A DNA stretch of 32,000 nt, from positions 4,710,001 to 4,742,000 of the forward strand of contig NC_010296.1 of NCBI RefSeq assembly GCF_000010625.1. The letters are read 5' to 3'. The position numbers and the translations under genes were made by a program. How positions within the stretch are numbered: position 1 is the stretch's first letter; each line of letters begins with the position of its first letter. The notes beneath the pieces were generated by a model that was not told the origin of the DNA, made no database searches, and saw only the letters and a list, made by a program, of their open reading frames with translations. This document shows positions 3,279-27,382 of this stretch, piece by piece. Origin of the DNA: Microcystis aeruginosa NIES-843. Its GTDB lineage: Bacteria > Cyanobacteriota > Cyanobacteriia > Cyanobacteriales > Microcystaceae.

Positions 3279-3279
3279 A

Positions 3280-4468: not shown

Positions 4469-5331
4469 TAAACACTCTCCTCATTAACAGTAATTTCTTG
4501 ATAGTCTGATGATAAATTAATTATTTCATCTTCACGAAGTTTTAGGGCATCACTACCTCTTTGTTTATATTCAAGATAACTTTTAAGATTGGTATAAGGA
4601 CGAGAGGAATCTACTTGTTTTGCCATATCTGTTGTCAGGTAATACATCCAATAGTCATCATATACTTCTTCTCCTAATAAAGAAAAAATACCTTTTCCTT
4701 CGATTAATTCAGAAATTTTAGTCACAGAACCGATATTTTTTGTATTACCACTACCAGGACTGGAGGAGGCAATTTTATATTTAGGTTGAGCAAAGAATTG
4801 AAAATCTTTAATAACAGAAGGTATTTTTTCTATATCTTCAAGTCTGAAGGATTTTCTCTCATCAGCTACCAGATCGCACTTAGTGTAAATAACACCCAGA
4901 ACATAGTGACCTGAATACTCTTGGTAAGGATATTTTATATTTTTGCAGCTATTCCTCTGTCGAAAGTATCCAGTAAATGTACCTAATGTCATTCCATTGA
5001 CTTCTTGATTATTTTTTCTGTAAGTGCTTTTTATATCCACAGCAAACTTAGCTCCTGTTGGCTCGTGAATAAAGGTCAAATCAGGGTAAAAATTTTGTTG
5101 AGATACTAACTCTATCTTTAATTGGTTACATCTAGCAAAATTATCAAATATGGGAAAAAGAAGCAATTCTAGGATTTTAGAGATGATTTTCGTATCAATA
5201 GATATAGTATATACTTTTTTATGTATATCGATAAAACCCTTAATAATCCATTCACCTTCATTAGTTGACACAGTTTGAGCAAAGGAAGAAGTTTGATGTT
5301 GTAAAAGTTGCAAAAAATGTTCTGGAGTCAT
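4468..5331 (-). CDS. Type II restriction endonuclease, EcoRV family
   Basis: 287 aa. Blocks are colinear with R.EcoRV as I remember it: SIDTKIISKILELL, NFYPDLTF (PD), FAVDIKSTY ((D/E)xK), LGTFTGYF..N.KNIKYPY, GSGNTKNIGS (recognition-loop GSGNTTNIGS in EcoRV) and IEGKGIF...DDYW. Confidence 0.8.
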   Translation of the reverse strand: MTPEHFLQLLQHQTSSFAQTVSTNEGEWIIKGFIDIHKKVYTISIDTKIISKILELLLFPIFDNFARCNQLKIELVSQQNFYPDLTFIHEPTGAKFAVDIKSTYRKNNQEVNGMTLGTFTGYFRQRNSCKNIKYPYQEYSGHYVLGVIYTKCDLVADERKSFRLEDIEKIPSVIKDFQFFAQPKYKIASSSPGSGNTKNIGSVTKISELIEGKGIFSLLGEEVYDDYWMYYLTTDMAKQVDSSRPYTNLKSYLEYKQRGSDALKLREDEIINLSSDYQEITVNEESV

Positions 5332-5452: not shown

Positions 5453-5754
5453 ACACTGTGTAGTTTACACGCTCTAGAGTAAAGAATAGTAAAAACTTCT
5501 ACTGTTAAATCTTGACCATCGAGATAGTCCTTCTCTAATCCAGCTTATCCCAGAAACCATGAGACTCTTGCTAGAACAAATGAACTAAAAAAATCTCTCG
5601 TCACCATTCTTGTCAGAATTATGAGAATTACGTTACATTTAGTTAAGATTTAATTGGCTGCGGGGATTAATATCGAAAAAATAACGTAAAATCCTTGACA
5701 AAAACAGCTAAATGAGTTAAGCAAAAATCTTTATCCTAGAACCACTAAACAAAC

Positions 5755-7641
5755 ATGAAACTATCTTGGAAAACGATTTTACTGTGGACATTGCCCGCCC
5801 TCGTGGTCGGTTTTTTCCTCTGGCAAGGCACTTTTGCCACCGCCACCAGTAATATCGGCAATAACACCGCCACTACCCGCATGACCTACGGACGCTTTCT
5901 AGAATACCTAGACAGTGGTAGGGTTGTCAGCGTCGATCTCTACGAAGGGGGCAGAACCGCGATCGTACAGGCCCTAGATCCAGAACTAGAAAACCGAGTA
6001 CAACGCCTACGGGTCGATTTACCGGCCAATTCCCCGGATTTGATCGCCCGTTTACGCGATTCTAAAATTAGTTTCGATGCTCACCCGATGCGGAATGACG
6101 GCGCTTGGTGGGGATTCCTCGGTAATCTACTTTTCCCCTTTTTGCTGATTGCCGCTCTCTTTTTCCTGTTCCGCCGTTCTAATAATATCCCAGGCGGTCC
6201 GGGTCAAGCGATGAGTTTTGGTAAATCAAAAGCCCGTTTCCAGATGGAAGCGAAAACCGGTATCACCTTTGATGATGTGGCGGGAATTGACGAAGCGAAG
6301 GAAGAATTACAGGAAGTCGTCACTTTCCTCAAACAACCGGAGAAATTTACCGCCGTCGGTGCCAAAATCCCCAAAGGAGTCCTTTTGGTTGGCCCTCCTG
6401 GTACGGGTAAAACCCTGTTGGCTAAAGCGATCGCCGGTGAAGCGGGTGTACCTTTCTTCAGCATTTCCGGTTCGGAATTTGTGGAAATGTTTGTCGGTGT
6501 CGGTGCTTCTCGCGTGCGCGACTTGTTCAAAAAAGCCAAGGAAAATGCTCCCTGTTTAATCTTTATCGATGAAATTGACGCAGTAGGTCGTCAACGGGGT
6601 GCCGGTATCGGTGGTGGTAACGATGAACGGGAACAAACCCTAAACCAATTATTGACAGAAATGGACGGTTTCGAGGGGAATACGGGAATTATCATCATTG
6701 CCGCCACTAACCGCCCCGATGTTCTCGATTCCGCTCTCATGCGTCCGGGCCGTTTTGATCGCCAAGTAACCGTCGATGCGCCCGATTTTAAAGGTCGTTT
6801 AGAGATTTTAGACGTTCACGCCCGCAATAAAAAGCTGGCCAACGACGTTTCCATCGAAGCGATCGCCCGTCGCACTCCAGGGTTCAGTGGAGCAGATTTA
6901 GCCAATTTACTGAACGAAGCGGCAATTTTAACCGCCCGTCGTCGTAAAGATGCCATTACCCTCCTAGAGATAGATGACGCGGTAGATCGCGTTATCGCCG
7001 GTATGGAAGGCACTCCTTTAGTCGATAGCAAGAGCAAGCGCTTAATCGCTTACCATGAAGTGGGTCATGCGATCGTGGGTACGCTCTTAAAAGATCACGA
7101 TCCCGTCCAGAAAGTGACTCTGATTCCCCGGGGCCAGGCCCAGGGTTTAACTTGGTTCACTCCCAACGAAGAACAGGGTTTAACCACGAAAGCTCAGTTA
7201 ATGGCCCGGATTTCCGGTGCTTTAGGTGGTCGGGCAGCCGAGGAAGAAATCTTCGGCTATGATGAGGTGACTACCGGTGCCGGTGGCGATTTACAGCAAG
7301 TCTCTGATATGGCGCGTCAGATGGTGACTCGTTTCGGGATGAGCGATTTGGGTCCTTTGTCCCTAGAAAGTCAAGGGGGTGAAGTGTTCCTCGGTGGCGG
7401 TTTGATGACTCGTTCCGAGTATTCTGAGAAGGTCGCTACTCGCATCGATGATCAGGTGCGCTCGATCGTGGAACACTGCCATGAAATTTCTCGGCAAATT
7501 ATTCGCGATCATCGCGAAGTGATCGATCGAGTGGTGGACCTGCTGATCGAAAAAGAAACGATCGATGGGGGAGAATTCCGGCAAATTGTGGCTGAATACG
7601 CCTACGTTCCCGAAAAAGAACAGTTTGTACCACAGTTATAG
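5755..7641 (+). CDS. ftsH: ATP-dependent zinc metalloprotease FtsH
   Basis: 628 aa with two N-terminal TM segments. It has Walker A GPPGTGKT, Walker B IIFIDEID-type (LIFIDEID), the SRH region and the zinc motif HEVGHA. Confidence 0.95.
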
Positions 7642-7662
7642 GTTGATTTCAATCTATATGCG

Positions 7663-7694
7663 ATCGGGTGGGTTAAGGCTCACCCGATTTTTTT
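7663..7694 (+). terminator. Rho-independent terminator downstream of ftsH
   Basis: The stem atcgggtg / cacccgat is followed by a T7 run. Confidence 0.65.
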
Positions 7695-7702
7695 ATCCTA
7701 GT

Positions 7703-7919
7703 TAGGGTTTGCTGAATAAATGTGAAATGTAGGCAAGGTAAGAGTTTTGTGGCTTTTTTCGCGAAACAGGTGCAAGATTTTGAGAGAATCGTCGTTCAAA
7801 ACCTTGCGTCTTCATCGGCCCGCGTCCTGTAGGGGCGAAGCATTCGGACAATCACCTATCGGTGAAACCGTAGATTTTCTAACCGAATGCTTCGCCCGTA
7901 CTTTTTGCCGCAAACCCTA
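7703..7919. mobile_element. MITE variant sharing the TAGGGTTTGCTGAATAAAT terminus, with a 15-bp perfect internal hairpin
   Basis: The left end is tagggtttgctgaataaatg and the right end is tttttgccgcaaacccta, the same right end as 27311-27328. The internal arms are gggcgaagcattcgg (7833-7847) and ccgaatgcttcgccc (7883-7897). Confidence 0.7.
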
Positions 7920-8010
7920 GTTAAGGGTTCAAAAGCTGCAAAAATAAGGATTAAATTGCCTAAAATCTGTAAATAGACCATTTAATTGATTATTATTCTC
8001 ATTCTTAATT

Positions 8011-8052
8011 CTCCTGACTACTGACTACTGGCTACTGACTCCTAACCCTAAC
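8011..8052. repeat. Tandem heptamer repeat CTGACTA / CTAACC units
   Basis: Reads ctcctgactactgactactggctactgactcctaaccctaac and lies directly downstream of the lipoprotein gene. Confidence 0.6.
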
Positions 8053-8074
8053 AATAATTTTTTGATTTTTACAA

Positions 8075-8290
8075 TTAGTCGTCATCGTCATCGTCATCGT
8101 CTTTATTCTGGTCATTATCACCGTCTTTTTGCTGCTTTTCTCCGTCTTTATCGCTATCTTCGTCTTTTTGCGGCGATTCCACCGTGGTAGGGACGTTTTT
8201 CGGTTCTTCGGCTTCTTTTCCTCCCTGACAAGCACCTAAAACCGTAGTCAAGGTTAACAGAATCAGCAAAACTAAGGATTTCATTTTCAT
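8075..8290 (-). CDS. Small secreted acidic lipoprotein with poly-Asp C-terminus
   Basis: The ATG at 8290 has a GGAGA 8 nt upstream; the track start at 8305 is GTG. The signal peptide plus lipobox reads LLTLTTVLGAC. The mature part is Glu/Asp/Lys-rich and ends in DDDDDDDD, encoded by a GAC/GAT triplet repeat. Confidence 0.7.
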   Translation of the reverse strand: MKMKSLVLLILLTLTTVLGACQGGKEAEEPKNVPTTVESPQKDEDSDKDGEKQQKDGDNDQNKDDDDDDDD

Positions 8291-12284: not shown

Positions 12285-12375
12285 TAAGCTAAACGGCTTT
12301 TACTTCGGATCACCGATATAGACTCCAAAAGGGTTATAGCTGTTGGATCATGCAGGTTAAGCGCCGTTTAGCTTA
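12285..12375. mobile_element. 91-bp MITE-like element with 13-bp perfect TIR TAAGCTAAACGGC/GCCGTTTAGCTTA
   Basis: The inverted repeats lie at 12285-12297 and 12363-12375. The TAAGCT terminus is shared with the IS630-family element at 24237-25470. Confidence 0.55.
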
Positions 12376-12401
12376 GCTGAAATTTTAGGTAGCCGATCTG
12401 G

Positions 12402-12760
12402 TAGTGGACTGACACAGCTAAAATAGGGCAATAGATAGGCTCAACTGAGGACATCAATCATGGGAAGATGTAGGCGAGATAAAGTTCATCTGACAGTCGC
12501 ACAACGAGAAAACTTGGGAGCATCTCACCTTTGCAATGAGCATAAATACTTAGTGGAAAAATAGGCTTTTCGAGGGTAATTCTTGTTTTAATTCTCCATG
12601 TACGCAGTCTTTAAAAGCCTCTATTTCGTTCCAAGACACGATTAAGAGTGGCTTTTAGGCTAAGTATAATTACTTATCGCGTAAGTGAGATGCTCCCGAA
12701 AACTTTGAACAAATCAGTGGGGAAGGGTTCATCACAGAGTACGCTAATCGGCATAACACG
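12402..12760 (+). pseudogene. Remnant of the IS630-family left end and transposase N-terminus, interrupted by a MITE and abutting the group II intron
   Basis: gtagtggactgacacagctaaaatagggcaatag...atgggaagatgtaggcgagataaag is clearly homologous to 16797-16925. It encodes MGRCRRDKVHLTVAQRENLEQIS versus MGRGRRDKVNLTGEQRENLEQIS there. Confidence 0.75.
12516..12697. mobile_element. 182-bp MITE with 13-bp perfect TIR (GGGAGCATCTCAC/GTGAGATGCTCCC) and 8-bp target duplication GAAAACTT
   Basis: The TIRs lie at 12516-12528 and 12685-12697. GAAAACTT occurs at 12508-12515 and 12698-12705. Removing the insert plus one duplicate restores colinearity with 16905-16925. Confidence 0.8.
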
Positions 12761-12803
12761 ATTAGGGGTCGAGAAGGTCGTCACCGACCTCCCCTCCCAT
12801 TCA

Positions 12804-12837
12804 GAACCGTGCATGAGACTTTCACCTCACACGGCTC
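12804..12837 (-). ncRNA. Group II intron domain V
   Basis: The minus strand reads GAGCCGTGTGAGGTGAAAGTCTCATGCACGGTTC. This is the 34-nt DV consensus shape (AGC triad, GAAA tetraloop), immediately after the IEP stop codon. Confidence 0.85.
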
Positions 12838-14679
12838 CTAGCTTGATTGTTCCCTTGTTAAGGATACAGCTTGACTTCTTTTGGTTGACCTTGTGTTATC
12901 CTGTTTAACAGATGATGTCAAACTAGATGATTCTAGGCTTCCATCGGTTGCCGATTTATCATCGTGACAGTGGCGGTGTAGTAATTGAAGGTTTTTATAT
13001 TCATCCTTTCCGCCTAGGCTTAACGGGAGAATGTGGTCAACTTCAATTAAATCCGATGGGGTGAAGTATTGTCCACATCGGCTACACTTGCCTTGTTGCT
13101 TTTTGAGTAGTTTGGCTACTCTTGTCGGTGTGTCGATTGCTTGTCCTCGTCTGGTCGCCCAGTAAGTCCAATTTCCGTCATAAGGTGAGGCGTCGGCGCG
13201 TACTAGGGTATGTCTGACAATTGGTGTCCAATTATGTTTCCATAATTGATGACCGTCTTTGGTCTTAAATAACCAAGATTCGTGTCTTTCTTTCCCATTG
13301 CTGAGTTTAACTGTATCCGGTCTAAAATAATTTCTCAGCTTTTCGTAGTTCGCTTTACCGCATCTTGATACTGTCCATGCCCTTAACATTAACCAGGTTG
13401 TATTGTCTAGTTTATTGAAGGTATCCATAGATACTACTCCTGAGTAGTAGTTAGCCCAACCTCTAATGATTGGGTTTAGTCGACTAATCAGGGCTGATTG
13501 AGGTGCTGTTTTGTGTTTTTTGATTACACCTTTAATCGCTTCTGTGTGGGTTTTAACTGCTTTTTGGCTGGGTTTGATGTGGGTTTTGTGACCAATTAAT
13601 CGTTTTGCCCCATCTTTCCCAGATTTGTATTTTCCTACTGGATATTGCCTGATATTGAATCCTAGAAAGTCAAAACCGGGTTCTTCCATTTTCCCATTGT
13701 ATTCAATAGGTTTGAGTGTGTGACACACTCTGGTTTTTTCTGGTTTAAGTTCTAATCCAATAGGCTTTAACCATTCAGAAATGGCAGTTTTGCACTGTTC
13801 AATGATTTCGAGTGATGGTGAAATCACCACAAAATCATCGGCGTACCTTATTAAAACAGCTTGATTTTTACCATTTCCCTTTTTGGGAAATAGTGTTTCA
13901 ATTAATCTTGCCATTCCATCCAGTGCGATGTTGGCTAGTAGTGGACTTATTACCCCTCCTTGTGGTGTCCCTGTTTCTGTTTCTTCAAATACACCGTTAT
14001 CCAAAACTCCTGCTTTGAGCCATTGTTTGATGTCTCTTTTCAGGGAGCTTGGACAATGAATTTTGGACAGTAAAAAGTCGTGATTAATTCGGTCAAAACA
14101 CTTGGCAATATCAGCATCTAATACAAAGTAGCTACTTTGATTAATGGTGATGTATATCCTTGATATAGCGTCATGGTCAGACCTTCCGGGTCGGAAACCA
14201 TAGCTGGTTCCTTCCATTTTTGACTCCCATTCTGGTTCAAGTGCCGATTTAATCAACGCTTGTCTAGCTCTGTCTTTGATGGTTGGTATTCCTAATGGGC
14301 GTTTTTCATCCCTGCCGGGTTTAGGAATCCATACCCTTCTTAGCGGTTTTGCTTTAAGTGTTCCTTTGATTTCTTCGGTTAGATTTAGCCTTTGTTCTGG
14401 GGATATTGCTATCATTCCATCGACTCCTGCTGTTTTCTTTCCTTGATTATCTTGGGTTACTTTGCGAACTGCTAATAAACGAGCATAGTATGATTTCACC
14501 AATAGACGTTGCAACCTTCTAACCTTTGCATCCTGTCCCGATTTAGCCGCTTGGTATATTCTCTTTTGGAGCTTGAAAACATATCTTTGGACTTTTGCCC
14601 AATTGATAGTTTTCCATACATTCGTAGTCTTAGTGGTTTTCGGTTTCCCGAATCCTTTACCTTCTCTCGATTTCGTCAT
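12838..14679 (-). CDS. Group II intron-encoded protein (reverse transcriptase / maturase / HNH endonuclease)
   Basis: 613 aa. RT blocks are RVWIPKPG...RPLGIPTIKDR, TPQGGVISPLLANI and YADDFVV. The maturase X motif is RGWANYY. The C-terminal HNH reads CSRCG...EVDHILPLSLGG...NLQLLHRHCH. Confidence 0.92.
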   Translation of the reverse strand: MTKSREGKGFGKPKTTKTTNVWKTINWAKVQRYVFKLQKRIYQAAKSGQDAKVRRLQRLLVKSYYARLLAVRKVTQDNQGKKTAGVDGMIAISPEQRLNLTEEIKGTLKAKPLRRVWIPKPGRDEKRPLGIPTIKDRARQALIKSALEPEWESKMEGTSYGFRPGRSDHDAISRIYITINQSSYFVLDADIAKCFDRINHDFLLSKIHCPSSLKRDIKQWLKAGVLDNGVFEETETGTPQGGVISPLLANIALDGMARLIETLFPKKGNGKNQAVLIRYADDFVVISPSLEIIEQCKTAISEWLKPIGLELKPEKTRVCHTLKPIEYNGKMEEPGFDFLGFNIRQYPVGKYKSGKDGAKRLIGHKTHIKPSQKAVKTHTEAIKGVIKKHKTAPQSALISRLNPIIRGWANYYSGVVSMDTFNKLDNTTWLMLRAWTVSRCGKANYEKLRNYFRPDTVKLSNGKERHESWLFKTKDGHQLWKHNWTPIVRHTLVRADASPYDGNWTYWATRRGQAIDTPTRVAKLLKKQQGKCSRCGQYFTPSDLIEVDHILPLSLGGKDEYKNLQLLHRHCHDDKSATDGSLESSSLTSSVKQDNTRSTKRSQAVSLTREQSS

Positions 14680-15373
14680 ATAGACTCCTACTAGACTCTA
14701 TCCTTACAATCAAACCGTAACCCGTCAGCATATCCTGATTATTACTGTCAGGCGTTGGCTTTTGGTTACATCTCACACCCTTGAAGGCTTGCGTTTACAC
14801 TTATCACTACTGAGTATTTCGACCGATACTCAGAGCCTAAAAGGGCTTATAACGTTCCGTTTATGTGGGCATTCCATCTTTAGATTTGTCCTCTCCACCG
14901 GGGTATTTTAAAGGTCTGTGTAAGTGATGATATGAGTACCTTACTGTTTCCCCTTGTTCTTTTGAACGCAGTGTGTCAACCTATTTCACTACTGCAATAT
15001 TTACGATGGTTCAAGTCGGACATTCGGTTCACACCTAATCATGGATGGTTGGCAGTGGTCTCGGTTTGGATGTTAGGTTACATCTAGGAGCCTTCCGTTC
15101 CCCGCTTCAGTCCCAGAGTTGTGATTTCTGAATCTGGGGGTGGCTATCGCCGTTACTCTCACCTTTGTAGCGATTGTAAATAATTGTTACAAAGTGTTTT
15201 GACCTTGAGTCCCCTTGCCTAGTTTGGTATCTGACGATACTAAACGTCGGGACATATAAACAGTTATAAGGTTGGTCTGGGTTGACCTCTTAGATTCAGT
15301 CGGGGGACTGAAGACCTTACTAGGCGGTTATTTCGGGCATTTCAGCCCTATTTCATGCCTAAACGTTTCGCAC

Positions 15374-15500
15374 CTTATCGTAATATTATACGGAAAACTT
15401 CTTGCGATCGCTCCATTTGAGCGTAATATACGGAAAGATTCTTAAAAAAATGCGTATTTAGCGTCACATACGGAAACTTTCCGTATATTATATAGTCGGG
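15374..15500 (+). repeat. Module A: ~130-bp repeat with three ATACGGAAA boxes at 40-bp phasing plus an inverted fourth box
   Basis: The boxes lie at 15388-15396, 15428-15436 and 15468-15476. The palindrome atacggaaa-c-tttccgtat spans 15468-15486. Together with 12753-12760 it is paralogous to 18897-19032, roughly four-fifths identical by manual alignment. Confidence 0.85.
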
Positions 15501-15572
15501 CTGCTTTAGGTTTTGGTAACGGCAGCATATTTAGCTTAGTCAAATTAAAAAGAATGAAGACATTAGTGGAAT

Positions 15573-16658
15573 ATGAAAATTTACGCTATATCACTCGTAG
15601 GTAATGTCTATTGGAGGATTCACCCCAATGATCCATTAATACTAAATCTTAAGTCCTTGCCTGGATGGTTTTTTATCAATCCCTTAACCTACTCAGAAGT
15701 AGAATTAGCCTCTAAAAGTTTTAGTTTCAAAAAGGTTGGAGTTGTTAATGGCACGATCATTGTTTTGACAGGAGGTTTTATATTAGGAACCTCGCTTGGG
15801 GAGTTTGACCCTACTTCTATTCCATTTCCTATAGAAGAAGAAGAGGCAAAGATTTTTCGGATTGATTCAGGAGGAAAAGTAAGTTCTGACTATAACCCAC
15901 TTCCCACTTATGTAGAACGCTTCTCTTCAAGCCTGCGTCAAATGAGTAAGCAGGTTACAATCCCTAAAAGTTTTTCCTGTATTTCCGAACGTGAACTCCT
16001 TGAGCTACCTGAATTAAATTTTACGGCTGCCAAAAAAACAGTGTTGGGTATACAAAGATACATAGTAGACACGGCGGTTACATGGGAAAATTTAAAGGAT
16101 GCAGATTTAGATTTTTTGGCTTCAAAGAGCTTTGTATATGAAAGACTGTTACTCGACTCAATCCATGCTTACAAAGACAAAGATTATAGAAGATCTCTGC
16201 TGTATACAGCTATTTCTGTCGAAACATTAGCTGCGACAAAATCAGATGAAGCATATGAACTTATTACTCAAAATGGAGATGCTGATAATGTTTTAAGATT
16301 AGTTCCTTTTTCTCAAAAAGGAGGAACTTTAATTACTAAAGATCCTGTTTATGAATTGCTACGTAGTAGAAGCAAGTTTCTAGAGCTTCTTCATGAGATA
16401 CCCTTATATATTTTTGGAAAATCTTTACTGGTTGATAATGAGGCTTTATACCAAAAAGCTACCAGGCTTTATAAAACTCGAAACAAGATAGCGCATTTAG
16501 GCCAACCTCATGCTGGAAATCAAACAACATTTGCACTGACCGAAGAAGATGCTTTAGAGGCTATAGAATGTGCAATGAATATCTTTCAATGGTTTGAGGT
16601 ATCAACACATTTTCCTATTCCTAAGTTATCCTTCATTAAAGGAGATTCACCTTCATAA
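15573..16658 (+). CDS. Hypothetical protein with a C-terminal HEPN-like domain (RNxxxH motif), candidate RNase/abortive-infection-type effector
   Basis: 361 aa and AT-rich. The C-terminal helical region has YKTRNKIAHLG (R303...H308, nt 16479-16496), flanked by the helices DYRRSLLYTAISVETLAA and ALEAIECAMNIFQWF. I did not recognise the N-terminal ~190 aa. Confidence 0.55.
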   Translation: MKIYAISLVGNVYWRIHPNDPLILNLKSLPGWFFINPLTYSEVELASKSFSFKKVGVVNGTIIVLTGGFILGTSLGEFDPTSIPFPIEEEEAKIFRIDSGGKVSSDYNPLPTYVERFSSSLRQMSKQVTIPKSFSCISERELLELPELNFTAAKKTVLGIQRYIVDTAVTWENLKDADLDFLASKSFVYERLLLDSIHAYKDKDYRRSLLYTAISVETLAATKSDEAYELITQNGDADNVLRLVPFSQKGGTLITKDPVYELLRSRSKFLELLHEIPLYIFGKSLLVDNEALYQKATRLYKTRNKIAHLGQPHAGNQTTFALTEEDALEAIECAMNIFQWFEVSTHFPIPKLSFIKGDSPS

Positions 16659-16672
16659 TTTATAAAGTTTTA

Positions 16673-16717
16673 GTGCGATCGCCGATCTCGTAGGGTGCGT
16701 TAACGAAGTGAACGCAC
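16673..16717 (+). repeat. Hairpin repeat (a): GTGCGATCGCCGATCTnGTAGGGTGCGTTAA...AACGCAC
   Basis: It is nearly identical to 22203-22249 and 22609-22655. The stem is gtgcgtt/aacgcac. It lies 14 nt after the HEPN-like gene stop. Confidence 0.8.
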
Positions 16718-16796
16718 TAATTCCCTCGCAAACCCTCAAAATAAAGCTCAAATGCGATAGAATGAGGGACAAATAAAATTCAGTCAAGAGATATTG

Positions 16797-17533
16797 TAGT
16801 GGACTGTTTCAGCTAAAATAGGGCAATAGCTCGAACAAGCAGAGGACATCAATCATGGGAAGAGGTCGGCGAGATAAAGTCAATCTAACAGGGGAACAAA
16901 GAGAAAACCTCGAACAAATCAGTCGTAATGGCTATGCACCAGCTAAAAAAATTCTCCACGCTCGGATTTTGCTGATGTGTGACGAGGGAGAACAGGCGAA
17001 AAGGAAATGGACAGATGAAGAAATAGGCGAAGCTTTAGAAGTTCATAGAAATACAGTGGGACGTATTCGTCAAAGATTTCTTCAAAAAGGCGAAAAACCA
17101 GCATTAGAACGGAAATCGAGAAAAACTCCCCCCACTCCGGCAAAAGTTGATGGAGCCGCCGCCGCCCAAATCATTGCCCTGTGCTGTTCGGAGCCACCAT
17201 CTGGCCGAGCCGAGTGGACAATCCGACTATTAACCTCGGAACTCAAACAAAGACAAATTATCACCGAGATTTCCAGTCCAACGGTGTGGCGTACTCTAAA
17301 AAAAACCAATTACGCCCTTGGAAAACCCAAAGATACTGTATTCCGGAACAGGATTTAGCCCGATTTGTTGCCCAGATGGAAGTTGTCCTTGACCTGTATG
17401 GCACTCAGCCATCGGAAGAAGAACCGTTAATCGCGATGGATGAAGCATCAAAGCAACTACTTGGAGAAGTTTACCCTCCGATACCCATGCAACCTGGACA
17501 AGATAAAAAAGAAGACTATCACTATAGTGATAG
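16797..17533 (+). mobile_element. IS630-family element, left part only (right part displaced or lost at the IS701-family insertion)
   Basis: The left end is ta-gtggactgtttcagctaaaatagggcaatagc. The transposase coding sequence runs from 16855 and stops being recognisable at 17534. Confidence 0.75.
16855..17533 (+). pseudogene. IS630-family transposase: HTH part in frame 0, DDE part in frame -1 across an A8 run, then truncated
   Basis: The ORF 16855-17358 is an HTH/Paired-like N-terminus. The frame starting at the A-run 17298-17305 reads KKNQLRPWKTQRYCIPEQD..., the canonical IS630 linker. It ends at 17533 before the DDE triad is complete. Confidence 0.75.
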
Positions 17534-18896
17534 TGGGACTTAAACAAATTTCAAGCCCAAACAAAGCCTAAACTGGCTTTGTAAGCGGCAAACACATCCC
17601 GATTCTCGGTCAGCCACTCAAAGAAACGGAAAGACATCGCTGTCCGAAAAGCTTCCAAGGCTTCCACAAAAGTGTTTAAAGGTCGATTCGCCCACTGCCT
17701 TTGCAATCCCCCAGTTAACTTATGCCACAGGATAAATGTATAGGCACAAAACACCAGGATAAAATGACGAAGTAAGCTTCGTTTATCCCTGACTTGGTAT
17801 TCCCTTAACCCTAACCATCCTTTGGCTTCTCGGTAGAATACTTCCACCCAATTTCTTTCGGTGTAAGTCTTGACTATCCACGACGCTGTTACTGTATCTG
17901 CCTCAACTACATTGGTGATGAAATAGTCCACCTCTGTGGCTTTTTCCATTGAACTTGCATTCATGACGATCGCCAAGTTCCTTTCTCCTTCTAGTTGAGA
18001 TATTTTCGCTCTGAATACCGCTACCCAAACCGTTTTTTCTTTATCTAGATTTAGGGTGATTTTCTCCCAATCCTTTTCTGATAGGCTTTTTGCTAGTTGC
18101 TCAAGCTGGATTGTTTCTTCCACACCCCCTTCTTTTTCAATAATTACTTTTCGATTTTTTGCCAATCCTCCTAAGTATTTTAGCTTTCTTTCTTCCAGGG
18201 CTTTGAGAAAATTTGTGTTGTTGCCATAACCAGCATCTATTAAGACGATTTTCGGTCGATAGCCTCTGGTTAAGCTCCGGTCAATTAAATCTATCGCTAT
18301 CTCCGGTTTCTTCTTAAATTCTTTGTCTTCTTTCCCCTCGGCTAAGGAACTAGCCGGTTGATAAATTTCAATGTCTAGGGGGACACTTTTTTTGCCGTCG
18401 TAGAGATGGGTAGTGACGGCGACTATTCCGTTGTCTGTCTTGCCAATTTCTCCTAGGTACTGCCTGCCAACTCCGGCGGTCAGATTGCCACTTTTTCGAT
18501 GTCCTGAGTCATCGACAATCAGGGAAAATCCTCGGGGGATTTGCGTCTGGCGGCATTGGTTCATCACTTGCAACCGACATTCATTCACCTGACGGTCTGA
18601 CCAGGGAGATTCGGTCAAAAAGTGATGTAATCGGTTATAAACTACTCCGACGGCATTATTGGCCATTTGAGTGAGGTTTTTCCGCTCACTTTCCCCTAAT
18701 AATCCTCCTAAATATTGTCTGAAGCCGTTTTTTTGCGCTTCGTTTTTGAAGCAATTGTCAAACCGCCGACACCATCGGTCAAAGCATGGGGGCATCGCGG
18801 CTGGGGTTGTCTCTTTCATCGCTGCTCTTTCAACGTAAAGTGCTTACTCTTTAACGATTATACTCGATTTGATCTTTATTTGGCGTTTAAGTCCCA
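17534..18896 (-). mobile_element. IS701-family insertion sequence (1363 bp)
   Basis: The 12-bp perfect terminal inverted repeats are tgggacttaaac (17534-17545) and gtttaagtccca (18885-18896). They enclose a single 422-aa transposase ORF. Confidence 0.8.
17551..18819 (-). CDS. IS701-family DDE transposase
   Basis: 422 aa. The N-terminal LHHFLTESPWSD motif is typical of IS701-type transposases. Acidic residues sit in LIVDDSGHRKSG, VLIDAGYGNN and YTERNWVEVFYREAKGWLGL. Confidence 0.85.
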   Translation of the reverse strand: MKETTPAAMPPCFDRWCRRFDNCFKNEAQKNGFRQYLGGLLGESERKNLTQMANNAVGVVYNRLHHFLTESPWSDRQVNECRLQVMNQCRQTQIPRGFSLIVDDSGHRKSGNLTAGVGRQYLGEIGKTDNGIVAVTTHLYDGKKSVPLDIEIYQPASSLAEGKEDKEFKKKPEIAIDLIDRSLTRGYRPKIVLIDAGYGNNTNFLKALEERKLKYLGGLAKNRKVIIEKEGGVEETIQLEQLAKSLSEKDWEKITLNLDKEKTVWVAVFRAKISQLEGERNLAIVMNASSMEKATEVDYFITNVVEADTVTASWIVKTYTERNWVEVFYREAKGWLGLREYQVRDKRSLLRHFILVFCAYTFILWHKLTGGLQRQWANRPLNTFVEALEAFRTAMSFRFFEWLTENRDVFAAYKASLGFVWA

Positions 18897-19032
18897 ATAA
18901 CACGCTTATTGTAATGTTATACGGAAAACTTCTTACGATCACTCGAATTTGGAATGATATATGGAAAGATTCTTTAAAAAATGCATATTTGGCGTGATAT
19001 ACGGAAAATTTCCGCATAATATATAGTTAGGC
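18897..19032 (+). repeat. Module B: second copy of the ATACGGAAA-box module (unoccupied intron site)
   Basis: The boxes lie at 18919-18927, 18959-18967 (atatggaaa variant) and 18999-19007. The inverted box lies at 19009-19017. The phasing is again exactly 40 bp. ataacacg|cttattg at 18897-18911 equals the exon junction of the intron at 12761-15373. Confidence 0.85.
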
Positions 19033-19174: not shown

Positions 19175-20503
19175 ATGGCAAAGCAAAGTTTCGACCTTGC
19201 TAAGTTACGACTCGGCATCTATCAGGATCGCATTTTTCTAGGGGTGCCACTCCAGGAACTGCTGGTGGCTGTTGAAATCACAGCGATTTGCCACTACCCC
19301 ACGTTCACGATCAATCTGGATGCTGGTTCAGATATCGCCTATCACTTCGATGCGCGTTCCTCTGAAGGGCGAATTGTGCAAAATACCTGTGTTGCTGGAG
19401 CTTGGGGTGCAGGGGGAGAAATTTTGTCCATGCCCCCTGAGTTCGTCTCTTCTCAGCCCTTTACCCTCAAGATTGCGGTTGAGCAAGAGTTGGTAGTTTA
19501 CCTCAATGGCCGGGTGCTAACTCGGTATGCCCACTGCCTGCCTCTGACTCAAATCAATACCGTTCATATTGTTTATCCGCCTGAAAATTTGCAGGTGCAG
19601 TCAGTGCAGGTATTTGAGCAGACTGCACCTGCCATAGAGCAACCCCCATTACCACCGCAGGAGATAACCGATATGCCAGCGTTTCTGGAAAATTTGCCGC
19701 CTCAGTTTGAGCCGCTGCGATTGTTTCTGGAAGCCAACTTAGTGCCTTACATCAAATTCACGGCGACAGACGCGGGACATCTCAATTCTGCGAGCTTCCG
19801 TGGCCCCGCCGACTGGAGTGGCGATCCGTTAGAACTTTGGCAAAGTAAAATTGGCGGTCATCCTTACCTACCGAAAGGCACGAGCTATCCTACCGATGCC
19901 GAAACGGGTGAGATGATGATGTTTCTCATGCAGATCAACTGCGCCGATCTGCCGGTAATCGAAAGTCTTAACTTGCCACGACAGGGGCTTTTGCAATTTT
20001 ACATCGGTTTAGATGTCCCCATGTGCACGCTGAGTCCTGAACAACACCGCGTTCTGTATTACCCCGACGTTTCTAAAGATAAAAATGACTTAATCACTGA
20101 CTTTAGCTTTTTAGCAGAACCTGCTAGCTCTCTGGAATGGTACGACGATGTTTATGCCTTAAATTTTTCTGTGCAGCGGGACGTGTTCTGGAATGCTCGT
20201 CGGCAACTGGATGAATCGTTTGAGATGCCCGAAGCGTTGACGGAACTGGGGGAAGACTTTACTGAATGGATTTCAGACTATGAGGACGAGTGTACGCTGA
20301 GGCATGGGCGGATCAATAAACTGGGTGGATATCCAGAACTTCACTCCTATGTGGATGAAACCATAGAGGGATTTAGAGGACGCTTATTGCTAGAACTTCA
20401 ACATCCTTTTGATATCGATAATAACTTTTACTTTTTTATCGAAGACTTGGATTTGGCAAACCTGAACCTTAGCAACGTTGAATCCTATTTCGTTAGCGTT
20501 TAA
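19175..20503 (+). CDS. Two-domain protein: N-terminal galectin-like beta-sandwich plus C-terminal DUF1963 (YwqG-like)
   Basis: 442 aa, with a GGAG 8 nt upstream of the ATG. The N-terminal AYHFDARSSEGRIVQNTCVAGAWGAGGEI...FTLKIAVEQELVVYLNGRVLTRYAH follows the galectin CRD pattern (H.N.R / V.N / W..E). The C-terminal KIGGHPYLPKG...MMFLMQINCADLP...GLLQFYI...NKLGGYPE follows DUF1963. Confidence 0.6.
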   Translation: MAKQSFDLAKLRLGIYQDRIFLGVPLQELLVAVEITAICHYPTFTINLDAGSDIAYHFDARSSEGRIVQNTCVAGAWGAGGEILSMPPEFVSSQPFTLKIAVEQELVVYLNGRVLTRYAHCLPLTQINTVHIVYPPENLQVQSVQVFEQTAPAIEQPPLPPQEITDMPAFLENLPPQFEPLRLFLEANLVPYIKFTATDAGHLNSASFRGPADWSGDPLELWQSKIGGHPYLPKGTSYPTDAETGEMMMFLMQINCADLPVIESLNLPRQGLLQFYIGLDVPMCTLSPEQHRVLYYPDVSKDKNDLITDFSFLAEPASSLEWYDDVYALNFSVQRDVFWNARRQLDESFEMPEALTELGEDFTEWISDYEDECTLRHGRINKLGGYPELHSYVDETIEGFRGRLLLELQHPFDIDNNFYFFIEDLDLANLNLSNVESYFVSV

Positions 20504-21047: not shown

Positions 21048-22142
21048 TATAGTTTAAGAGTCATAATTAGAAGCAAAGCACTCATTAAAAACATGATTAA
21101 CCTAGAATTCACGGAAGAAGAAAAGAACTCACTGTATTATGAAAGATTTCATCATCCCCATCCCCGGGTTCAACTGAAGATGGAAGTTCTCTGGTTAAAG
21201 AGCCAAAAGATACCGCACAAAAAAATTTGTCAGTTAGCAGGAATCTCGCCAAATACCTTATTAACCTATCTTCGAGATTATGAAGAAGGCGGAATAGAAA
21301 AATTAAAAGAAATCAACTTCTATCGCCCTAAAAGTGAATTAGAGTCTCAAAAAGAAACGCTCAAAAAATACTTCGAGAAAAATCCACCAGCCACAATAAA
21401 TGAAGCTGTATATAGGAGAGAAGAATTAACGGGAATAAAACGAAGTCCTACCCAAGTTAGAAAATTTTTAAAATCAATGGGAATGAAATGTTTAAAAGTA
21501 GGTTCTCTTCCTTCTAAAGCTGACCGGGATGAACAAGAGGACTACAAAGAAAAAAAGCTAGAACCCAGACTAAATGAGGCTAAAGAAGGAAAAAGGGCTG
21601 TTTTTTTTGTTGATGCCGCTCACTTCGTCATGGGAGCATTTCTCGGTTTTGTTTGGTGTTTTGAGAGACTTTTTGTTAAGTCACCGAGCGGGCGTAAACG
21701 CTTCAATGTTTTAGGAGCATTAAATGCAATAACTCATGAAGTTATTCTGGTTACGAATGACACTTATATTACAGCAACTCAAGTCTGTGAACTCCGGTCA
21801 AAAATAGCTGCTTTAGGAATAACTATTCCCATCACTCTAGTCTTAGATAATGCCCGCTATCAAAAATGTAAAATTGTTGAAGAATTGGCTCTTTCTTTGT
21901 CAATAGAGCTACTCTATTTGCCGTCTTATTCGCCTAATCTAAATTTAATTGAAAGGCTGTGGAAATTGGTCAAAAAGAAATGTTTGTATGGTAAATACTA
22001 TGAAAACTTTTCTGACTTTTCTTCAGCTATTTATGAATGTCTGAATGATGCCCACCTGAAACATAAAAAAGAACTGGATTCCTTGCTCACTCTACGATTT
22101 CAGAAGTTTAATAAATCTCAGATTATGAACGTCTAAAGTATA
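21048..22142 (+). mobile_element. IS630-family insertion sequence, apparently complete
   Basis: Imperfect TIRs are tagtttaagagtcataat (left) and attatgaacgtctaaagta (right). TA dinucleotides lie at both borders, and there is a single intact transposase ORF. Confidence 0.75.
21093..22136 (+). CDS. IS630-family DDE transposase
   Basis: 347 aa with an N-terminal HTH. DDE-region blocks are VFFVDAAHF, LVLDNARYQK and YLPSYSPNLNLIERLW. Confidence 0.9.
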   Translation: MINLEFTEEEKNSLYYERFHHPHPRVQLKMEVLWLKSQKIPHKKICQLAGISPNTLLTYLRDYEEGGIEKLKEINFYRPKSELESQKETLKKYFEKNPPATINEAVYRREELTGIKRSPTQVRKFLKSMGMKCLKVGSLPSKADRDEQEDYKEKKLEPRLNEAKEGKRAVFFVDAAHFVMGAFLGFVWCFERLFVKSPSGRKRFNVLGALNAITHEVILVTNDTYITATQVCELRSKIAALGITIPITLVLDNARYQKCKIVEELALSLSIELLYLPSYSPNLNLIERLWKLVKKKCLYGKYYENFSDFSSAIYECLNDAHLKHKKELDSLLTLRFQKFNKSQIMNV

Positions 22143-22202
22143 GCAAGTTCCTGGCTTGCTAGTCAGTTGGCATATCTCCTTGTAATCCAGTTTGTTTAGG
22201 AA

Positions 22203-22249
22203 GTGCGATCGCCGATCTGGTAGGGTGCGTTAATGGAATGTAACGCACC
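22203..22249 (+). repeat. Hairpin repeat (b)
   Basis: Reads gtgcgatcgccgatctggtagggtgcgttaatggaatgtaacgcacc with the 9-bp stem ggtgcgtta/taacgcacc. Confidence 0.8.
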
Positions 22250-22311
22250 TCATTTTTATCCTGTGATGATAGAGTTGAGTTGTACTGATAGTGATAGTTG
22301 TCTAGTTCCAA

Positions 22312-22629
22312 ATGCCATTACCTCAAGTGGTTATTGATACCAACGTCATTGTTGCTGGGTTGAGGTCTAGGCGAGGTAGTGCATTTCAATTGCTCACGCT
22401 CATCGATACAGGGCAGTTTGATATACATTTGTCAGTGCCTCTGGTACTCGAATATACAGAAGTTTTACTGCGGGAATTGCCAAACCTTTGCCTGAGTCGT
22501 GAAGAGGTTGACGACCTAATTGATTTCTACTGTGCAGTAGGCGTACAGCATGAAATTTTCTTTCTTTGGCGACCATTCCTGCGCGACCCCAAAGATGAAA
22601 TGGTATTAGTGCGATCGCCGATCTTGTAG
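22312..22629 (+). pseudogene. PIN-domain toxin (VapC-like), C-terminally truncated by hairpin repeat (c)
   Basis: The N-terminus VVIDTNVIVAG... has the first PIN Asp, followed by LEYTEVL and DPKDEMVL. From 22609 the frame reads into the repeat (RSPIL*), so the last helix and last acidic residue are missing. No antitoxin ORF lies upstream. Confidence 0.65.
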
Positions 22630-22655
22630 GGTGCGTTAATGCAATGTAACGCACC
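22609..22655 (+). repeat. Hairpin repeat (c)
   Basis: Reads gtgcgatcgccgatcttgtagggtgcgttaatgcaatgtaacgcacc. An inverted degenerate copy follows at 22674-22706. Confidence 0.8.
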
Positions 22656-22721
22656 TTATCTAATGTTCAAAATCCGTGCGTTATGCTGACGCTAACACAC
22701 CCTACTGGACTGTTTCAGCCC

Positions 22722-24236: not shown

Positions 24237-25470
24237 TAAGCTTTTACGCATTTAAGTTACATTGACAGCATTACCCTTATTTTTAAGTTTTCTACTCCAT
24301 TTAATAATCAATCCCCCTTCATTTAAAAGCTGATTGACTACTTTTTCCAGTTCTTCTTTATTTTCAAATTCTCGATTAGCTATGTACTCTTTAGCGGAAT
24401 GCCACACTAATTCTATTAGGTTGTAATCTGGACTATAAGCTGGTAAAAACTCTAGCCTAATATTGGGCAACTCTTTTTCCACCTGCTCAATAACATCTTT
24501 CTTTTTGTGATAACTAGCATTGTCTAATATGATGATAATTTTCGGTCCTTTTTCTCGAAAATCTTCGGGCAGATTTCCCAAGTTTATCCATTCTTGACGA
24601 ATCTCTTCATGAAGTTTCTTTAATTGTTCATGGAAAGTTTCTGAATTTCCTTTTTTGATCATAAAACAGACTCGTTTTTTGTCATTATATCTTAAGGCTC
24701 CCATCACATTCACCCTTCCTCTTTTTCTTTGTCCATTCACTTTTTTTCGCTTTCCTTTTTTTGTCCAAGCTCTCCTTCTTATTACTCTCAAACTAAATCC
24801 ACACTCATGAGGGGCTGTGTGGCGAACCTGCGTCGCCACCTTGAAAGCCCCGTCCCAAAACCATACCTGGATTGACTCTGACTTTTCTTTAGCCAACCTT
24901 AAATATTCATCTAATTTTTCTTTAAATGCTTTTCTTAATTTCTTGTCTTGCTTATCTTCTAGACTATATTTCGCCCAGATATACACATACTTTTTTCTTC
25001 TCAATATTCTTCTCACTTGCGAGCCACTCAGTTTAATTCTTGTTTCCTTTTCTAGATGCTCTGCTAATCTTGCCGCTGTCCATCTCCCGAATTCATATCC
25101 AAATTCCTTCGGGTCTTCATCAACTATTTTTAATAGTAAATTAATATATTCCTCTGTGGCTTTTTTATGATTTCCATTTTTTCTCCCATCTTCTAGACTT
25201 TCTAAATTGTTAGGATCACCGTGAACACACCAAGGGGCGACCGTTTTGAGTGAACAGCCAATAAAGTCAGCTATTTCTCGTTGAGTTTTTCCGTCGTTTA
25301 GCAAGAGAAACATTAAAATTCTTTCCCTAACCTCTGCTCTTTCTTCTTCTTTAAGAGCTTTTTGTAAGTTTTTCTTTTCTTCTAAGTCTAGGAAATCTTT
25401 GGCTGGCATAAGTAGGATTTTTCTAAAATTACTATTTCTATTTTAGGTGGTTTAAGTGCGTTTTAGCTTA
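24237..25470 (-). mobile_element. IS630-family insertion sequence with TAAGCT termini
   Basis: The TIRs are taagcttttacgcatttaag (24237-) and cttaagtgcgttttagctta (-25470), with TA at both borders. Confidence 0.8.
24252..25409 (-). CDS. IS630-family transposase carrying a 45-nt in-frame palindromic insertion next to the first catalytic Asp
   Basis: 385 aa. WFWD-GAFKVATQVRHTAPH-ECGFSL replaces the expected contiguous WFWDECGF. The later blocks ILDNASYHKK and FLPAYSPDYNLIELVW are intact. Confidence 0.85.
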   Translation of the reverse strand: MPAKDFLDLEEKKNLQKALKEEERAEVRERILMFLLLNDGKTQREIADFIGCSLKTVAPWCVHGDPNNLESLEDGRKNGNHKKATEEYINLLLKIVDEDPKEFGYEFGRWTAARLAEHLEKETRIKLSGSQVRRILRRKKYVYIWAKYSLEDKQDKKLRKAFKEKLDEYLRLAKEKSESIQVWFWDGAFKVATQVRHTAPHECGFSLRVIRRRAWTKKGKRKKVNGQRKRGRVNVMGALRYNDKKRVCFMIKKGNSETFHEQLKKLHEEIRQEWINLGNLPEDFREKGPKIIIILDNASYHKKKDVIEQVEKELPNIRLEFLPAYSPDYNLIELVWHSAKEYIANREFENKEELEKVVNQLLNEGGLIIKWSRKLKNKGNAVNVT

Positions 25471-26895: not shown

Positions 26896-27023
26896 TTAGT
26901 AGTAGGCCGTCAGCCGTCAGCTAAGTAAGTGGTTCTGATTAAATAGAAGATAGATTTTGCTTTTGATCCCCCCTGCTCCCCTTAATAAGGGGGGTATCTG
27001 ACAATTTTCAACACCTACTTACT

Positions 27024-27233
27024 TAGGGTCTGCTGAATAAATCTAAAAACCTTGTTGGATAAGACTTTTGGACTTTTTTACCCTCAAAAAGTGCCGGCCA
27101 TTGGGGGGATCGGGGGGAAAATTCCTGGACTTTTTCCCTGAAAATTAGGTAATTGGCCTCCTCAAAACCGATAAAACCCCACACCCCACACCCCACACCC
27201 TGCCCCCAGGAAAAACTTTTTCAGCAGACCCTA
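27024..27233. mobile_element. MITE copy (C-rich strand is +), termini TAGGGTCTGCTGAA/TTCAGCAGACCCTA
   Basis: Homologous over its length to 3280-3499 (inverted) and 29626-29872, with 3 CCCC runs in its heptamer tract. Confidence 0.8.
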
Positions 27234-27328
27234 GGTAGTTGACCACCTGAAAATCGATAAAACCCCACACCCCACACCCCACACCCCACACCCTGCCACC
27301 ACCGAAAAGCTTTTTGCCGCAAACCCTA
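27234..27328. mobile_element. Truncated MITE copy (right half only) abutting the previous copy
   Basis: ggtagttgaccacctgaaaatcgataaaacccc... matches 29745-29872. It has 4 CCCC runs and ends tttttgccgcaaacccta like 7902-7919. Confidence 0.7.
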
Positions 27329-27382
27329 CTTAGATAGCTGATGGCAAAAAAACAAAACTAATAGTTAGTAACTAAAAAAAAG

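Follow-up and report, generated by a model that had tools for sequence, protein, structure and literature searches.

The 32,000-nucleotide (nt) stretch of the Microcystis aeruginosa NIES-843 genome considered here (contig NC_010296.1, positions 4,710,001 to 4,742,000; hereafter the window) contains on its forward strand an intact open reading frame (ORF) of 361 amino acids (aa), which begins with ATG and encodes an N-terminal domain specific to its family, followed by a C-terminal domain predicted to be a HEPN ribonuclease (RNase). The coordinates of this gene and of the features around it are collected in Table 1. A first-pass annotation, made from the letters of the DNA, had singled out the ORF as a stand-alone candidate effector of defence or abortive infection; the ORF exists exactly as described there, and the peptides quoted from it are found in the translation, among them LYKTRNKIAHLG, which includes R303-N-K-I-A-H308. 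The AT-richness claimed for the gene is also real, with a GC content of 36.0% (26% at third codon positions, GC3) versus 43.4% for the remaining window; the core genes of the window (ftsH, holB, the Cu-ATPase gene and the DUF1963 gene) have 47-51% GC. HIP1 sites (GCGATCGC) had been reported as missing from the ORF, and indeed none of the 20 sites in the window falls within it. However, with an expectation of no more than about 0.7 sites for 1086 nt, their absence is not significant and carries no weight alone, and it was dropped as a marker of foreign origin. The flanks are as first reported: a group II intron lies upstream of the gene, and insertion sequence (IS) elements together with a hairpin repeat lie downstream.

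The family to which the protein belongs is unannotated and comprises about 400 clusters (50% identity). Searches with the window protein against Pfam (none at E<=10), NCBIfam, PADLOC and the PDB sequences gave no usable match. A word-indexed search yielded 27 relatives, which are without exception hypothetical or unnamed and have no precomputed Pfam domain, and an exhaustive search yielded 402 cluster representatives (50% identity) at E<=1e-3, nearly all of 320-370 aa. Since the representatives align across both halves of the protein, with no fusions to other domains seen, the two-part architecture is fixed. The conservation values given below come from an alignment of 139 diverse members, in which P37, H308 and W340 are invariant, and W14, R122, Q127, D195, L210, A213, E217, R242, D257, P258, L263, F269, H274, L278, Y279, S284, T302, R303, N304 and G310 are at least 90% conserved. 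Column entropy is 2.1-2.25 bits in the C-terminal half versus 3.0 bits in the N-terminal half; judged from these sequences, the C-terminal half is clearly the more conserved and the N-terminal half evolves faster. Profile searches of the PDB with 25 and with 139 sequences returned only chance-level matches, such as an antibody heavy chain; a SIR2-like protein (E 0.31) was set aside, as the position of its catalytic His is Gly in the family. Among the matches listed from a profile search of a 5.8-billion-protein set with the 139-sequence alignment there are no remote annotated relatives, and a Foldseek comparison of the full model with viral structures (BFVD) gave no match. One PHROG family of unknown function, phrog_12454 (339 positions), weakly matches 28 of the 139 members; the match was not recovered when ten divergent members were scanned to place it.

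HEPN domains have a recognizable layout, in which helix 3 ends in an Rx4-6H motif whose R is followed by a polar residue (N, D or H), helix 2 carries a conserved acidic residue (often within Ex3[KR]), and inserts between helices 2 and 3 are frequent (Anantharaman et al., PMC3710099). An AlphaFold2 model of the full protein, built from a 25-sequence alignment (predicted local distance difference test, pLDDT, 86; predicted template-modelling score, pTM, 0.84), reproduces this layout. The C-terminal half forms the four-helix up-and-down bundle of the HEPN superfamily (Pfam clan CL0291), with helix 1 at residues 188-201, helix 2 at 205-234, helix 3 at 290-307 and helix 4, which contains W340, at 324-340; a strand at 354-359 lies outside the bundle. 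The domain thus takes up about half of the protein and not the C-terminal third first proposed. R303 to H308 occupy the C-terminal end of helix 3, ahead of the loop that leads into helix 4, and R303 is followed by the polar N304. E217, which is 97% conserved and lies inside the long helix 2, supplies the acidic residue, although the exact Ex3[KR] spacing is absent (E217-TLAAT-K223). A 55-residue insert (235-289) between helices 2 and 3 holds the conserved D257-P258, H274, Y279 and S284.

Searches with this model point in the same direction. HEPN domains are its best matches in the PDB: 1wol (probability 0.99, target-normalised template-modelling (TM) score 0.61), 1ufb, 2hsb, 2q00 (TM 0.64) and 1o3u come first, and the HEPN domain of sacsin and Csm6 are also among the top matches, with probabilities of 0.87-0.99 and target-normalised TM scores of 0.5-0.64 for the HEPN matches overall. 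The commonest weak Pfam matches among the 139 members are to HEPN_Apea (9, best E 7.6e-4), HEPN_RiboL-PSP (6), HEPN_Swt1 (3) and HEPN_LA2681 (1), so that 19 sub-threshold matches fall on four HEPN-named families; one HEPN_Apea match, in the homologue P0025, spans residues 256-312, including TRNKIVH, and scores 14.8 bits against a cut-off of 24.4. R303 and N304 are each found in 99% of the aligned members and H308 in 100%. Of 171 sequences retrieved, 163 have R[NHD]xxxH, the eight exceptions being five truncated proteins, two with R[TS]xxxH and one in which W replaces R. Each of these lines is weak singly. Because the fold, the conservation of the motif, the helix layout and the weak Pfam matches combine, however, it is highly probable, as far as sequence and model can tell, that the domain folds as a HEPN domain and that its catalytic motif is intact.

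Not every HEPN family is catalytic (PMC3710099), and the present family has no significant match to any characterised RNase. The HEPN-like domain might then be an inert scaffold that binds a ligand or nucleic acid, with the protein acting through its N-terminal domain. This seems very improbable, since inactive HEPN families have lost the Rx4-6H motif (PMC3710099), whereas here its R, N and H are 99-100% conserved, E217 is retained as well, and no part of the protein is better conserved than its C-terminal half.

The N-terminal domain was modelled separately and appears to have a mixed alpha/beta fold, which corrects its first description as simply beta-rich; a disordered, indel-rich loop interrupts it at about aa 76-108. 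Its most conserved residues are W14, P37, R122 and Q127 (at least 91%). The earlier remark that this part of the protein resembled nothing recognizable holds: modelled alone, aa 1-168 have no fold match in the PDB (best E 0.34, probability <=0.12, TM <=0.24), the flavin-reductase, Cas6 and Csm3 entries returned for it being at chance level, and no Pfam family reaches its cut-off or recurs among the weak matches listed for family members. These 168 aa accompany the HEPN domain in every case. The high pTM of the full-length model suggests that the two lobes are packed in a fixed orientation, and we infer that the N-terminal domain is a putative regulatory or sensor module.

How the gene came to stand alone in this region is best seen at its borders. 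Four close homologues, with 76-85% aa identity, come from a metagenome (L027), an Elainellaceae genome (L009), Microcoleus vaginatus (L010) and Leptolyngbya (L011), and all lie in unrelated surroundings. Across the window and these relatives, DNA similarity sets in sharply some 78 nt before the ATG, at an integron core site that reads GTTGGGC in L010 and L027, GTTGGAC in L009 and GCTGGGC in L011, and that is degenerate in the window (GTCGGGC). From there it runs through a leader that is kept in all five loci, further upstream of which the DNA of the five is unrelated. Thus, at five loci the 5' boundary has the form of a G/TTRRRY crossover site, and conservation between unrelated hosts is confined to the cassette. 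Within the leader, which the window shares with L009, L010, L011 and L027, CATATTT may pair with the GAATATG that contains the start codon. This pairing hints at translational control, for which the sequences give weak support: the consensus structure of the leader is itself weak (-10.8 kcal/mol, with 3 compensatory pairs in 5 sequences). A search of Rfam found no family in the leader or in the attC regions described next.

At the 3' side, homology between the window and its four relatives extends only 16 nt past the stop codon. L009, L010 and L011 have a further 90-115 nt in common downstream of the stop, which fold as an imperfect hairpin resembling an attC site; the attC-like hairpins of relatives measure 89-115 nt. 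Such sites are imperfect hairpins of 50-140 nt that run from an R'' box (RYYYAAC) to an R' box (GTTRRRY) (PMC5027507). In L010 the sequence GTCCAAC ... CCCATgCAC ... GTGATGGG ... GTTGGGT is 89 nt long with a free energy (dG) of -34.6; its ends fit R'' and R', and one base of its L'' arm is unpaired. Between relatives the inner stem varies (TTCTGGT/ATCAGAA in L009 versus GCCCAT/ATGGGC in L010), and similarity among L009, L010 and L011 ends at the GTT of the R' box. The site in L011 is degenerate; in L009 the R'' box reported by our scanner overlaps the stop codon, and a GTCTAAA that would serve as R'' lies about 22 nt after it.

More distant members of the family provide the complete arrangement. 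An attC-like site begins 9-22 nt past the stop codon in L006, L009, L010, L013, L048 and L049. In L006 the order is attC (6878-6969), ORF (7001-8086) and attC (8097-8185), and in L013 a 131-nt site (GGCTAAC...GTTAGGC) starts 10 nt past the stop. In L048 (1-4854), five hairpins (103-128 nt, dG -57 to -62) come after the HEPN ORF, spaced about 0.75-1.05 kb apart and each behind a co-oriented ORF, and L049 (1-13427) has eight attC-like sites, one of them 11 nt past the HEPN stop. Arrays of co-oriented ORF-attC units are therefore a feature of the relatives (five sites in L048, eight in L049 and two in L006), with none in the window, and in several relatives the family gene is the sole ORF between two integron recombination sites. 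One further cassette ORF of L048 (2149-2661) looks macro-domain-like by eye; L048 and L049, both metagenome contigs, may be a source of further candidate defence cassettes. For attC sites, the bottom strand is reported to be the more stable (PMC5027507), as it is in 10 of 13 attC-like sites here. A crude scanner found attC-like sites at 7 of 78 family genes versus 11 of 413 control ORFs (Fisher p=0.014); since it overlooks the sites of L049 and L011, and since many of the contigs are short, the first count is a minimum.

In the window itself, the position of the attC is occupied by a 45-nt HIP1 hairpin repeat and an IS630-like element. Because the attC is absent and the core site carries a mismatch, a cassette origin of this copy rests on the homology of its borders. 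Since that homology stops at 16674 and the attC has been replaced, the copy would be a stranded cassette. The window gene would thus be the remnant of a single-ORF integron gene cassette whose attC has since been lost, an origin that, taken jointly with the reading of its product as a mobile HEPN RNase, we judge somewhat better than evenly supported on sequence grounds. Such an origin would explain the stand-alone layout of the gene, its AT-richness and its mobile context.

Loss of the attC, a mutated core site and enclosure by an intron and IS elements would also be expected of an ORF that is merely a decaying passenger of a region riddled with such elements and is non-functional in this genome. 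The gene itself argues otherwise. Its full-length frame is collinear with all homologues and keeps all the conserved residues, a -10-like element stands directly upstream of the conserved leader, where a promoter-like site is placed at 15463-15491, and dN/dS is below 1 (pairwise dN/dS of 0.17-0.51 and dS of 0.16-0.52 for the window copy versus its four close homologues). Decay is therefore a quite improbable account; by these sequence comparisons the gene appears intact and under purifying selection. The five close copies have 35-36% GC, and their host loci have 43, 43, 48, 48 and 60%. This low GC in higher-GC hosts, together with low dS, indicates recent horizontal transfer among different filamentous cyanobacteria, to judge from the sequences compared, and such transfer would account for the AT-richness of the ORF.

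One genome from each of 185,579 species was scanned by pattern, which gave 18 loci, spread over Cyanobacteria, Chloroflexota, Acidobacteriota, Myxococcota, Bacteroidota and Verrucomicrobia, and a scan of metagenomes added 65 more. When the called ORFs were compared all-against-all, at 22 and then at 85 loci, no neighbour family was conserved beyond sets of near-identical contigs, and no housekeeping operon was found. The 900-nt flanks hold nothing conserved but DUF433 genes (3 of 22 loci) and an untranslated flank common to close relatives, in keeping with the original claim that no partner ORF is present. Pfam matches of the 150 nearest neighbour proteins are spread over 138 different families. 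The neighbours are often of a mobile or conflict-related kind: some loci have toxin-antitoxin (TA) neighbours (DUF433/DUF5615, PemK, PIN/Phd and HigB pairs), some have mobile ones (transposases, IS elements, integrases and group II introns), and others have conflict-type genes, such as a STAND NTPase beside conjugation genes, a BsuBI/PstI-type restriction-modification system, TIR, and SIR2-pAgo. Three candidate partners were rejected: a 329-aa gene upstream in L006 and L007 is a separate cassette with its own attC, the DUF433/DUF5615 pairs are adjacent in few loci only, and response-regulator or kinase genes recur only at variable distances. Nucleotidyltransferases are absent among the neighbour families listed, with a minimal nucleotidyltransferase (MNT) gene adjacent in 0 of 85 loci, and tandem RNA repeats of the type III antitoxin (ToxI) kind were not found.

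These neighbourhoods bear on the possibility that the protein is the toxin of a TA system that serves to stabilise an array or island by addiction, its antitoxin having escaped recognition either as a small RNA of the leader or 3' hairpin or as a protein encoded elsewhere. HEPN proteins are well known as the toxins of TA systems, and TA cassettes abound in integron arrays (PMC3710099); TA modules adjoin the gene in several loci, and the 71-nt leader is conserved, with a possible structure across the start codon. However, the neighbouring TA pairs are complete modules themselves, no MNT or other partner ORF is conserved in the 85 loci, and single-ORF cassettes such as those of L006 and L048 have no space for a protein antitoxin. 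ToxI-type repeats are lacking as well, and the constant fusion of the N-terminal domain suggests regulation in cis. We therefore consider such a TA system unlikely.

The patchiness of the family bears on another alternative, in which the protein is an accessory RNase outside defence, used in host RNA turnover or stress-induced dormancy and carried by integrons as an adaptive trait. Integron-borne HEPN proteins have been proposed to induce dormancy under stress (Anantharaman et al., PMC3710099), the gene is under purifying selection, no known defence model in PADLOC matches it, and its association with defence genes is anecdotal. Set against this are several properties typical of conflict systems: a very patchy distribution (18 loci among 185,579 species genomes, in six phyla), recent horizontal transfer, variable neighbourhoods rich in mobile elements, and an N-terminal half that diverges faster than the catalytic half. 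Such a role is accordingly rather unlikely in our estimation.

We are left with a reading that is modestly favoured by sequence, model and analogy taken together: the ORF probably encodes a self-contained, horizontally mobile predicted HEPN RNase, derived from a single-ORF integron cassette, with a role as a toxin or in resistance to phages. Because two HEPN domains must pair to form an active site (PMC3710099; ApeA preprint, bioRxiv 10.64898/2026.03.20.713152), the protein should act as a homodimer. By analogy with the biochemistry of other HEPN proteins, dimerisation of two copies would bring their Rx4H motifs together into a single composite RNase site that needs no metal, and this site would cleave RNA to leave 2',3'-cyclic phosphate ends. 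Since cassettes such as that of L006 hold this ORF alone, control of a potentially toxic RNase must be built into the protein, and since the cassette holds no antitoxin, it is most likely that the N-terminal domain gates the nuclease. The anatomy of the protein suggests that this fast-evolving domain keeps the nuclease off until a trigger is sensed, and the conserved residues of the insert (D257-P258, H274, Y279 and S284) may contribute to gating or to trigger sensing. The most probable role would be abortive infection or anti-phage defence, or else that of a related stress or addiction toxin; defence specifically comes close to an even chance. Such a role would have parallels in ApeA, which acts in defence as a single HEPN protein, and in the BRiC defence cassettes carried by integrons. 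A broader proposal is clearly more tentative, namely that the family is an uncharacterised group of single-protein immune effectors, in which an N-terminal sensor of new fold gates a HEPN RNase and whose genes move as single-gene integron cassettes between environmental phyla, including Cyanobacteria, Chloroflexota and Acidobacteriota.

Several results weigh against this interpretation. The Foldseek E-values of the HEPN matches are weak (0.19-1.1), no curated HEPN model reached its threshold, and the profile searches of the PDB were not significant. With a scanner whose background is 2.7%, attC-like sites were found at no more than a minority of the loci (at least 7 among about 80), and the window copy has neither an attC 3' of its ORF nor a perfect core site. 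An IntI integrase was found neither beside any locus nor among the 20 longest window ORFs, which were scanned for it; as the arrays also run into contig ends, those of the relatives may be attC clusters without an integrase. PADLOC did not match the window protein, the association of the family with defence islands is anecdotal, and dimerisation is argued by analogy, N-terminal gating from the anatomy of the protein. Finally, tblastn with the protein and with the family consensus found no relative in 50,697 phage or 72,556 plasmid records, and a scan of IMG/VR found none either. The reading as a HEPN effector nevertheless stands as a candidate, since the three points on which the first-pass annotation had allowed that it might fail (the fold, the conservation of R303 and H308, and the gene neighbourhood) all came out in its favour.

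The remaining features of the region are largely mobile. The group II intron, whose 5' GTGCG begins at 15373, is flanked by an IS630-like left-end fragment (12395-12718) on one side and by the repeat D2 on the other. An association of group II introns with integrons and attC sites is known (PMC7923331). In L006, too, group II domain V is matched (5503-5599); the cassette array there has its first attC-like site about 1.3 kb downstream. D2 has a long-range inverted repeat; the left side of each of its two copies abuts a mobile element (the intron in one case, the DDE_5 IS in the other), and each ends rightward in a GTYRGGC core (GTCGGGC and GTTAGGC), where similarity stops. D2 might be a recombination or target site of the genome. 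When D2 and the 45-nt HIP1 hairpin repeat were checked as possible attC sites, no R'' box was recognizable in either. The consensus of the 45-nt repeat is GTGCGATCGCCGATCTnGTAGGGTGCGTTAAyGnAnTG(T)AACGCAC, and two of its copies bracket a PIN_3-domain gene (22312-22629).

Table 1. Features of the window around the HEPN-family gene (nt positions within the window; aa, residues of the encoded protein)
Feature	Position	Strand	Remarks
Group II intron, complete-looking	12720-15373	-	Reverse transcriptase (RT)/maturase/HNH ORF 12838-14679; Rfam domain V 12761-12839
Repeat D2, 128 nt	15374-15501; second copy 18905-19032		83% identity; rich in TATACGGAAA motifs
Degenerate integron core GTCGGGC, putative 5' cassette boundary	15495-15501	+	One mismatch to GTTRRRY
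Conserved 71-nt 5' leader	15502-15572	+	Small hairpin CTGCTTTA...TAAcGGCAG; kept in five loci
361-aa ORF, ATG start	15573-16658	+	Intact; family-specific N-terminal domain and predicted C-terminal HEPN domain
N-terminal alpha/beta domain, aa 1-168	15573-16076	+	Separate model, pLDDT 83
Predicted HEPN domain, aa ~186-345	16128-16607	+	Predicted secondary structure, fold matches, weak Pfam HEPN matches
Putative Rx4-6H catalytic motif codons, R303-N304-K-I-A-H308	16479-16496	+	Conserved in 139 sequences; end of helix 3
Conserved 3' stub, 16 nt	16659-16674	+	Homology to L009, L010, L011 and L027 ends at 16674
Dispersed 45-nt repeat, HIP1 site and short hairpin	16667-16717; 22202-22253; 22603-22659
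IS630-like element	starts ~16790 (16790-18900 with the DDE_5 IS)		Helix-turn-helix (HTH) ORF 16855-17358, continued in another frame to 17543
DDE_5 IS interrupting the IS630-like element	17551-18819	-
Further IS630-family transposases	21093-22136; 24252-25409

Other parts of the window hold sequences of separate interest. An inverted repeat at 12516-12697 (182 nt, with 45-nt arms that are 73% complementary) lies inside the IS630-like fragment and resembles a miniature inverted-repeat transposable element (MITE); sequence related to its arm is found at 15157-15185, within the intron. Between the start of the Cu-ATPase gene and the IS630-like fragment there is an 85-nt hairpin (12288-12372) whose ends, GCTAAAC...GTTTAGC, are each one mismatch from the attC R''/R' consensus; it could be due to chance or be another degraded attC. 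On the reverse strand, a stretch of 32-36% GC contains genes for an EcoRV-type restriction endonuclease (4468-5331) and a D12-class N6-adenine methyltransferase (3536-4468), a pair (3536-5331) that is probably a second AT-rich, acquired defence module in the window. Right after the second D2 copy, a 442-aa protein (19175-20503) joins a galectin-type lectin domain to DUF1963, an unusual pairing. Finally, dispersed repeats of one family, about 100-250 nt long, 79-97% identical and containing short tandem units, are present at 3276-3503, 27017-27353 and 29619-29894.

Immune mechanisms and RNA tools are currently being drawn from stand-alone HEPN RNases, such as ApeA and Cas13, and from integron defence cassettes. 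The family described here, which is unannotated, consists of compact proteins of about 340-360 aa and occurs widely in environmental bacteria. Since integron recombination sites bound the functional unit in relatives, the single ORF is likely to be sufficient and is easily tested. If the protein does act in defence, the N-terminal domain would be a new sensor fold and a new module of trigger recognition, the idea of integrons as defence biobanks would extend to cyanobacteria and soil phyla, and the gene would be a candidate determinant of cyanophage resistance. The wider reading, as a family of immune effectors, would mean that chromosomal integrons and attC clusters outside Proteobacteria also store anti-phage genes. 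A simple toxin would still represent a new HEPN architecture with built-in self-control.

Among known systems, HepT/MntA (HEPN-MNT, type II/VII TA) likewise has a HEPN RNase toxin with Rx4-6H, and the best fold matches of our model (1wol, 1ufb, 2hsb and 1o3u) are minimal HEPN proteins of that group. However, the protein here is three times larger, has an obligatory N-terminal domain, and has no adjacent MNT gene in 85 loci, so that it falls outside the HEPN-MNT group. The clade of Abi2/AbiD/AbiF and RiboL-PSP-HEPN shares with it an abortive-infection-type HEPN domain and an R-N-x3-H style motif, and RiboL-PSP-HEPN is the second most frequent weak Pfam match (6 of 139, all below threshold); the present family differs in having neither the L-PSP fusion nor the ParB operon, and Abi_2 is not among the 25 families listed.

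Two comparisons concern carriage by integrons. A HEPN family of integron cassettes, represented by PDB 3jrt, has been known since 2013 and was described from Gammaproteobacteria (PMC3710099); it too has a conserved Rx4-6H motif. At the level of these searches it is unrelated, being absent from the PDB sequence and profile matches at E<=10 and from the 50 Foldseek matches listed, and the family here differs in its additional 168-aa N-terminal domain and in occurring in the six other phyla or groups listed (Cyanobacteria to Verrucomicrobia). BRiCs (bacteriophage-resistance integron cassettes), such as the AbiV cassette brcN, are small self-contained defence genes carried as integron cassettes; their homologues are also found outside integrons with degraded or missing attC sites (bioRxiv 10.1101/2024.07.02.601719), and those without an attC resemble the situation of the window copy. 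Phage protection and recombination were shown experimentally for BRiCs, whereas the family here is known from sequence and models; in the text of that paper as searched, the family is not named and HEPN has 0 occurrences.

The closest functional analogue, by comparison of architecture and motif, is ApeA. Membership of ApeA itself is not indicated: PADLOC returned 0 families, HEPN_Apea is below its cut-off, there is no N-terminal Pfam match, and ApeA has about 600 aa versus 361 here. The likeness lies in the plan of the protein. In each case one polypeptide joins an N-terminal domain of unknown fold to a C-terminal HEPN domain, and a partner gene is lacking; the motif is RNKITH in ApeA and RNKIAH in the window protein; HEPN_Apea (PF18739) is the most frequent weak Pfam match in the family (9 of 139); and ApeA is predicted to form a homodimer that joins its two motifs (bioRxiv 10.64898/2026.03.20.713152). 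Among the known stand-alone HEPN RNases and the integron-borne cassettes for toxins and defence, the gene in the window represents a new family and a new architecture.

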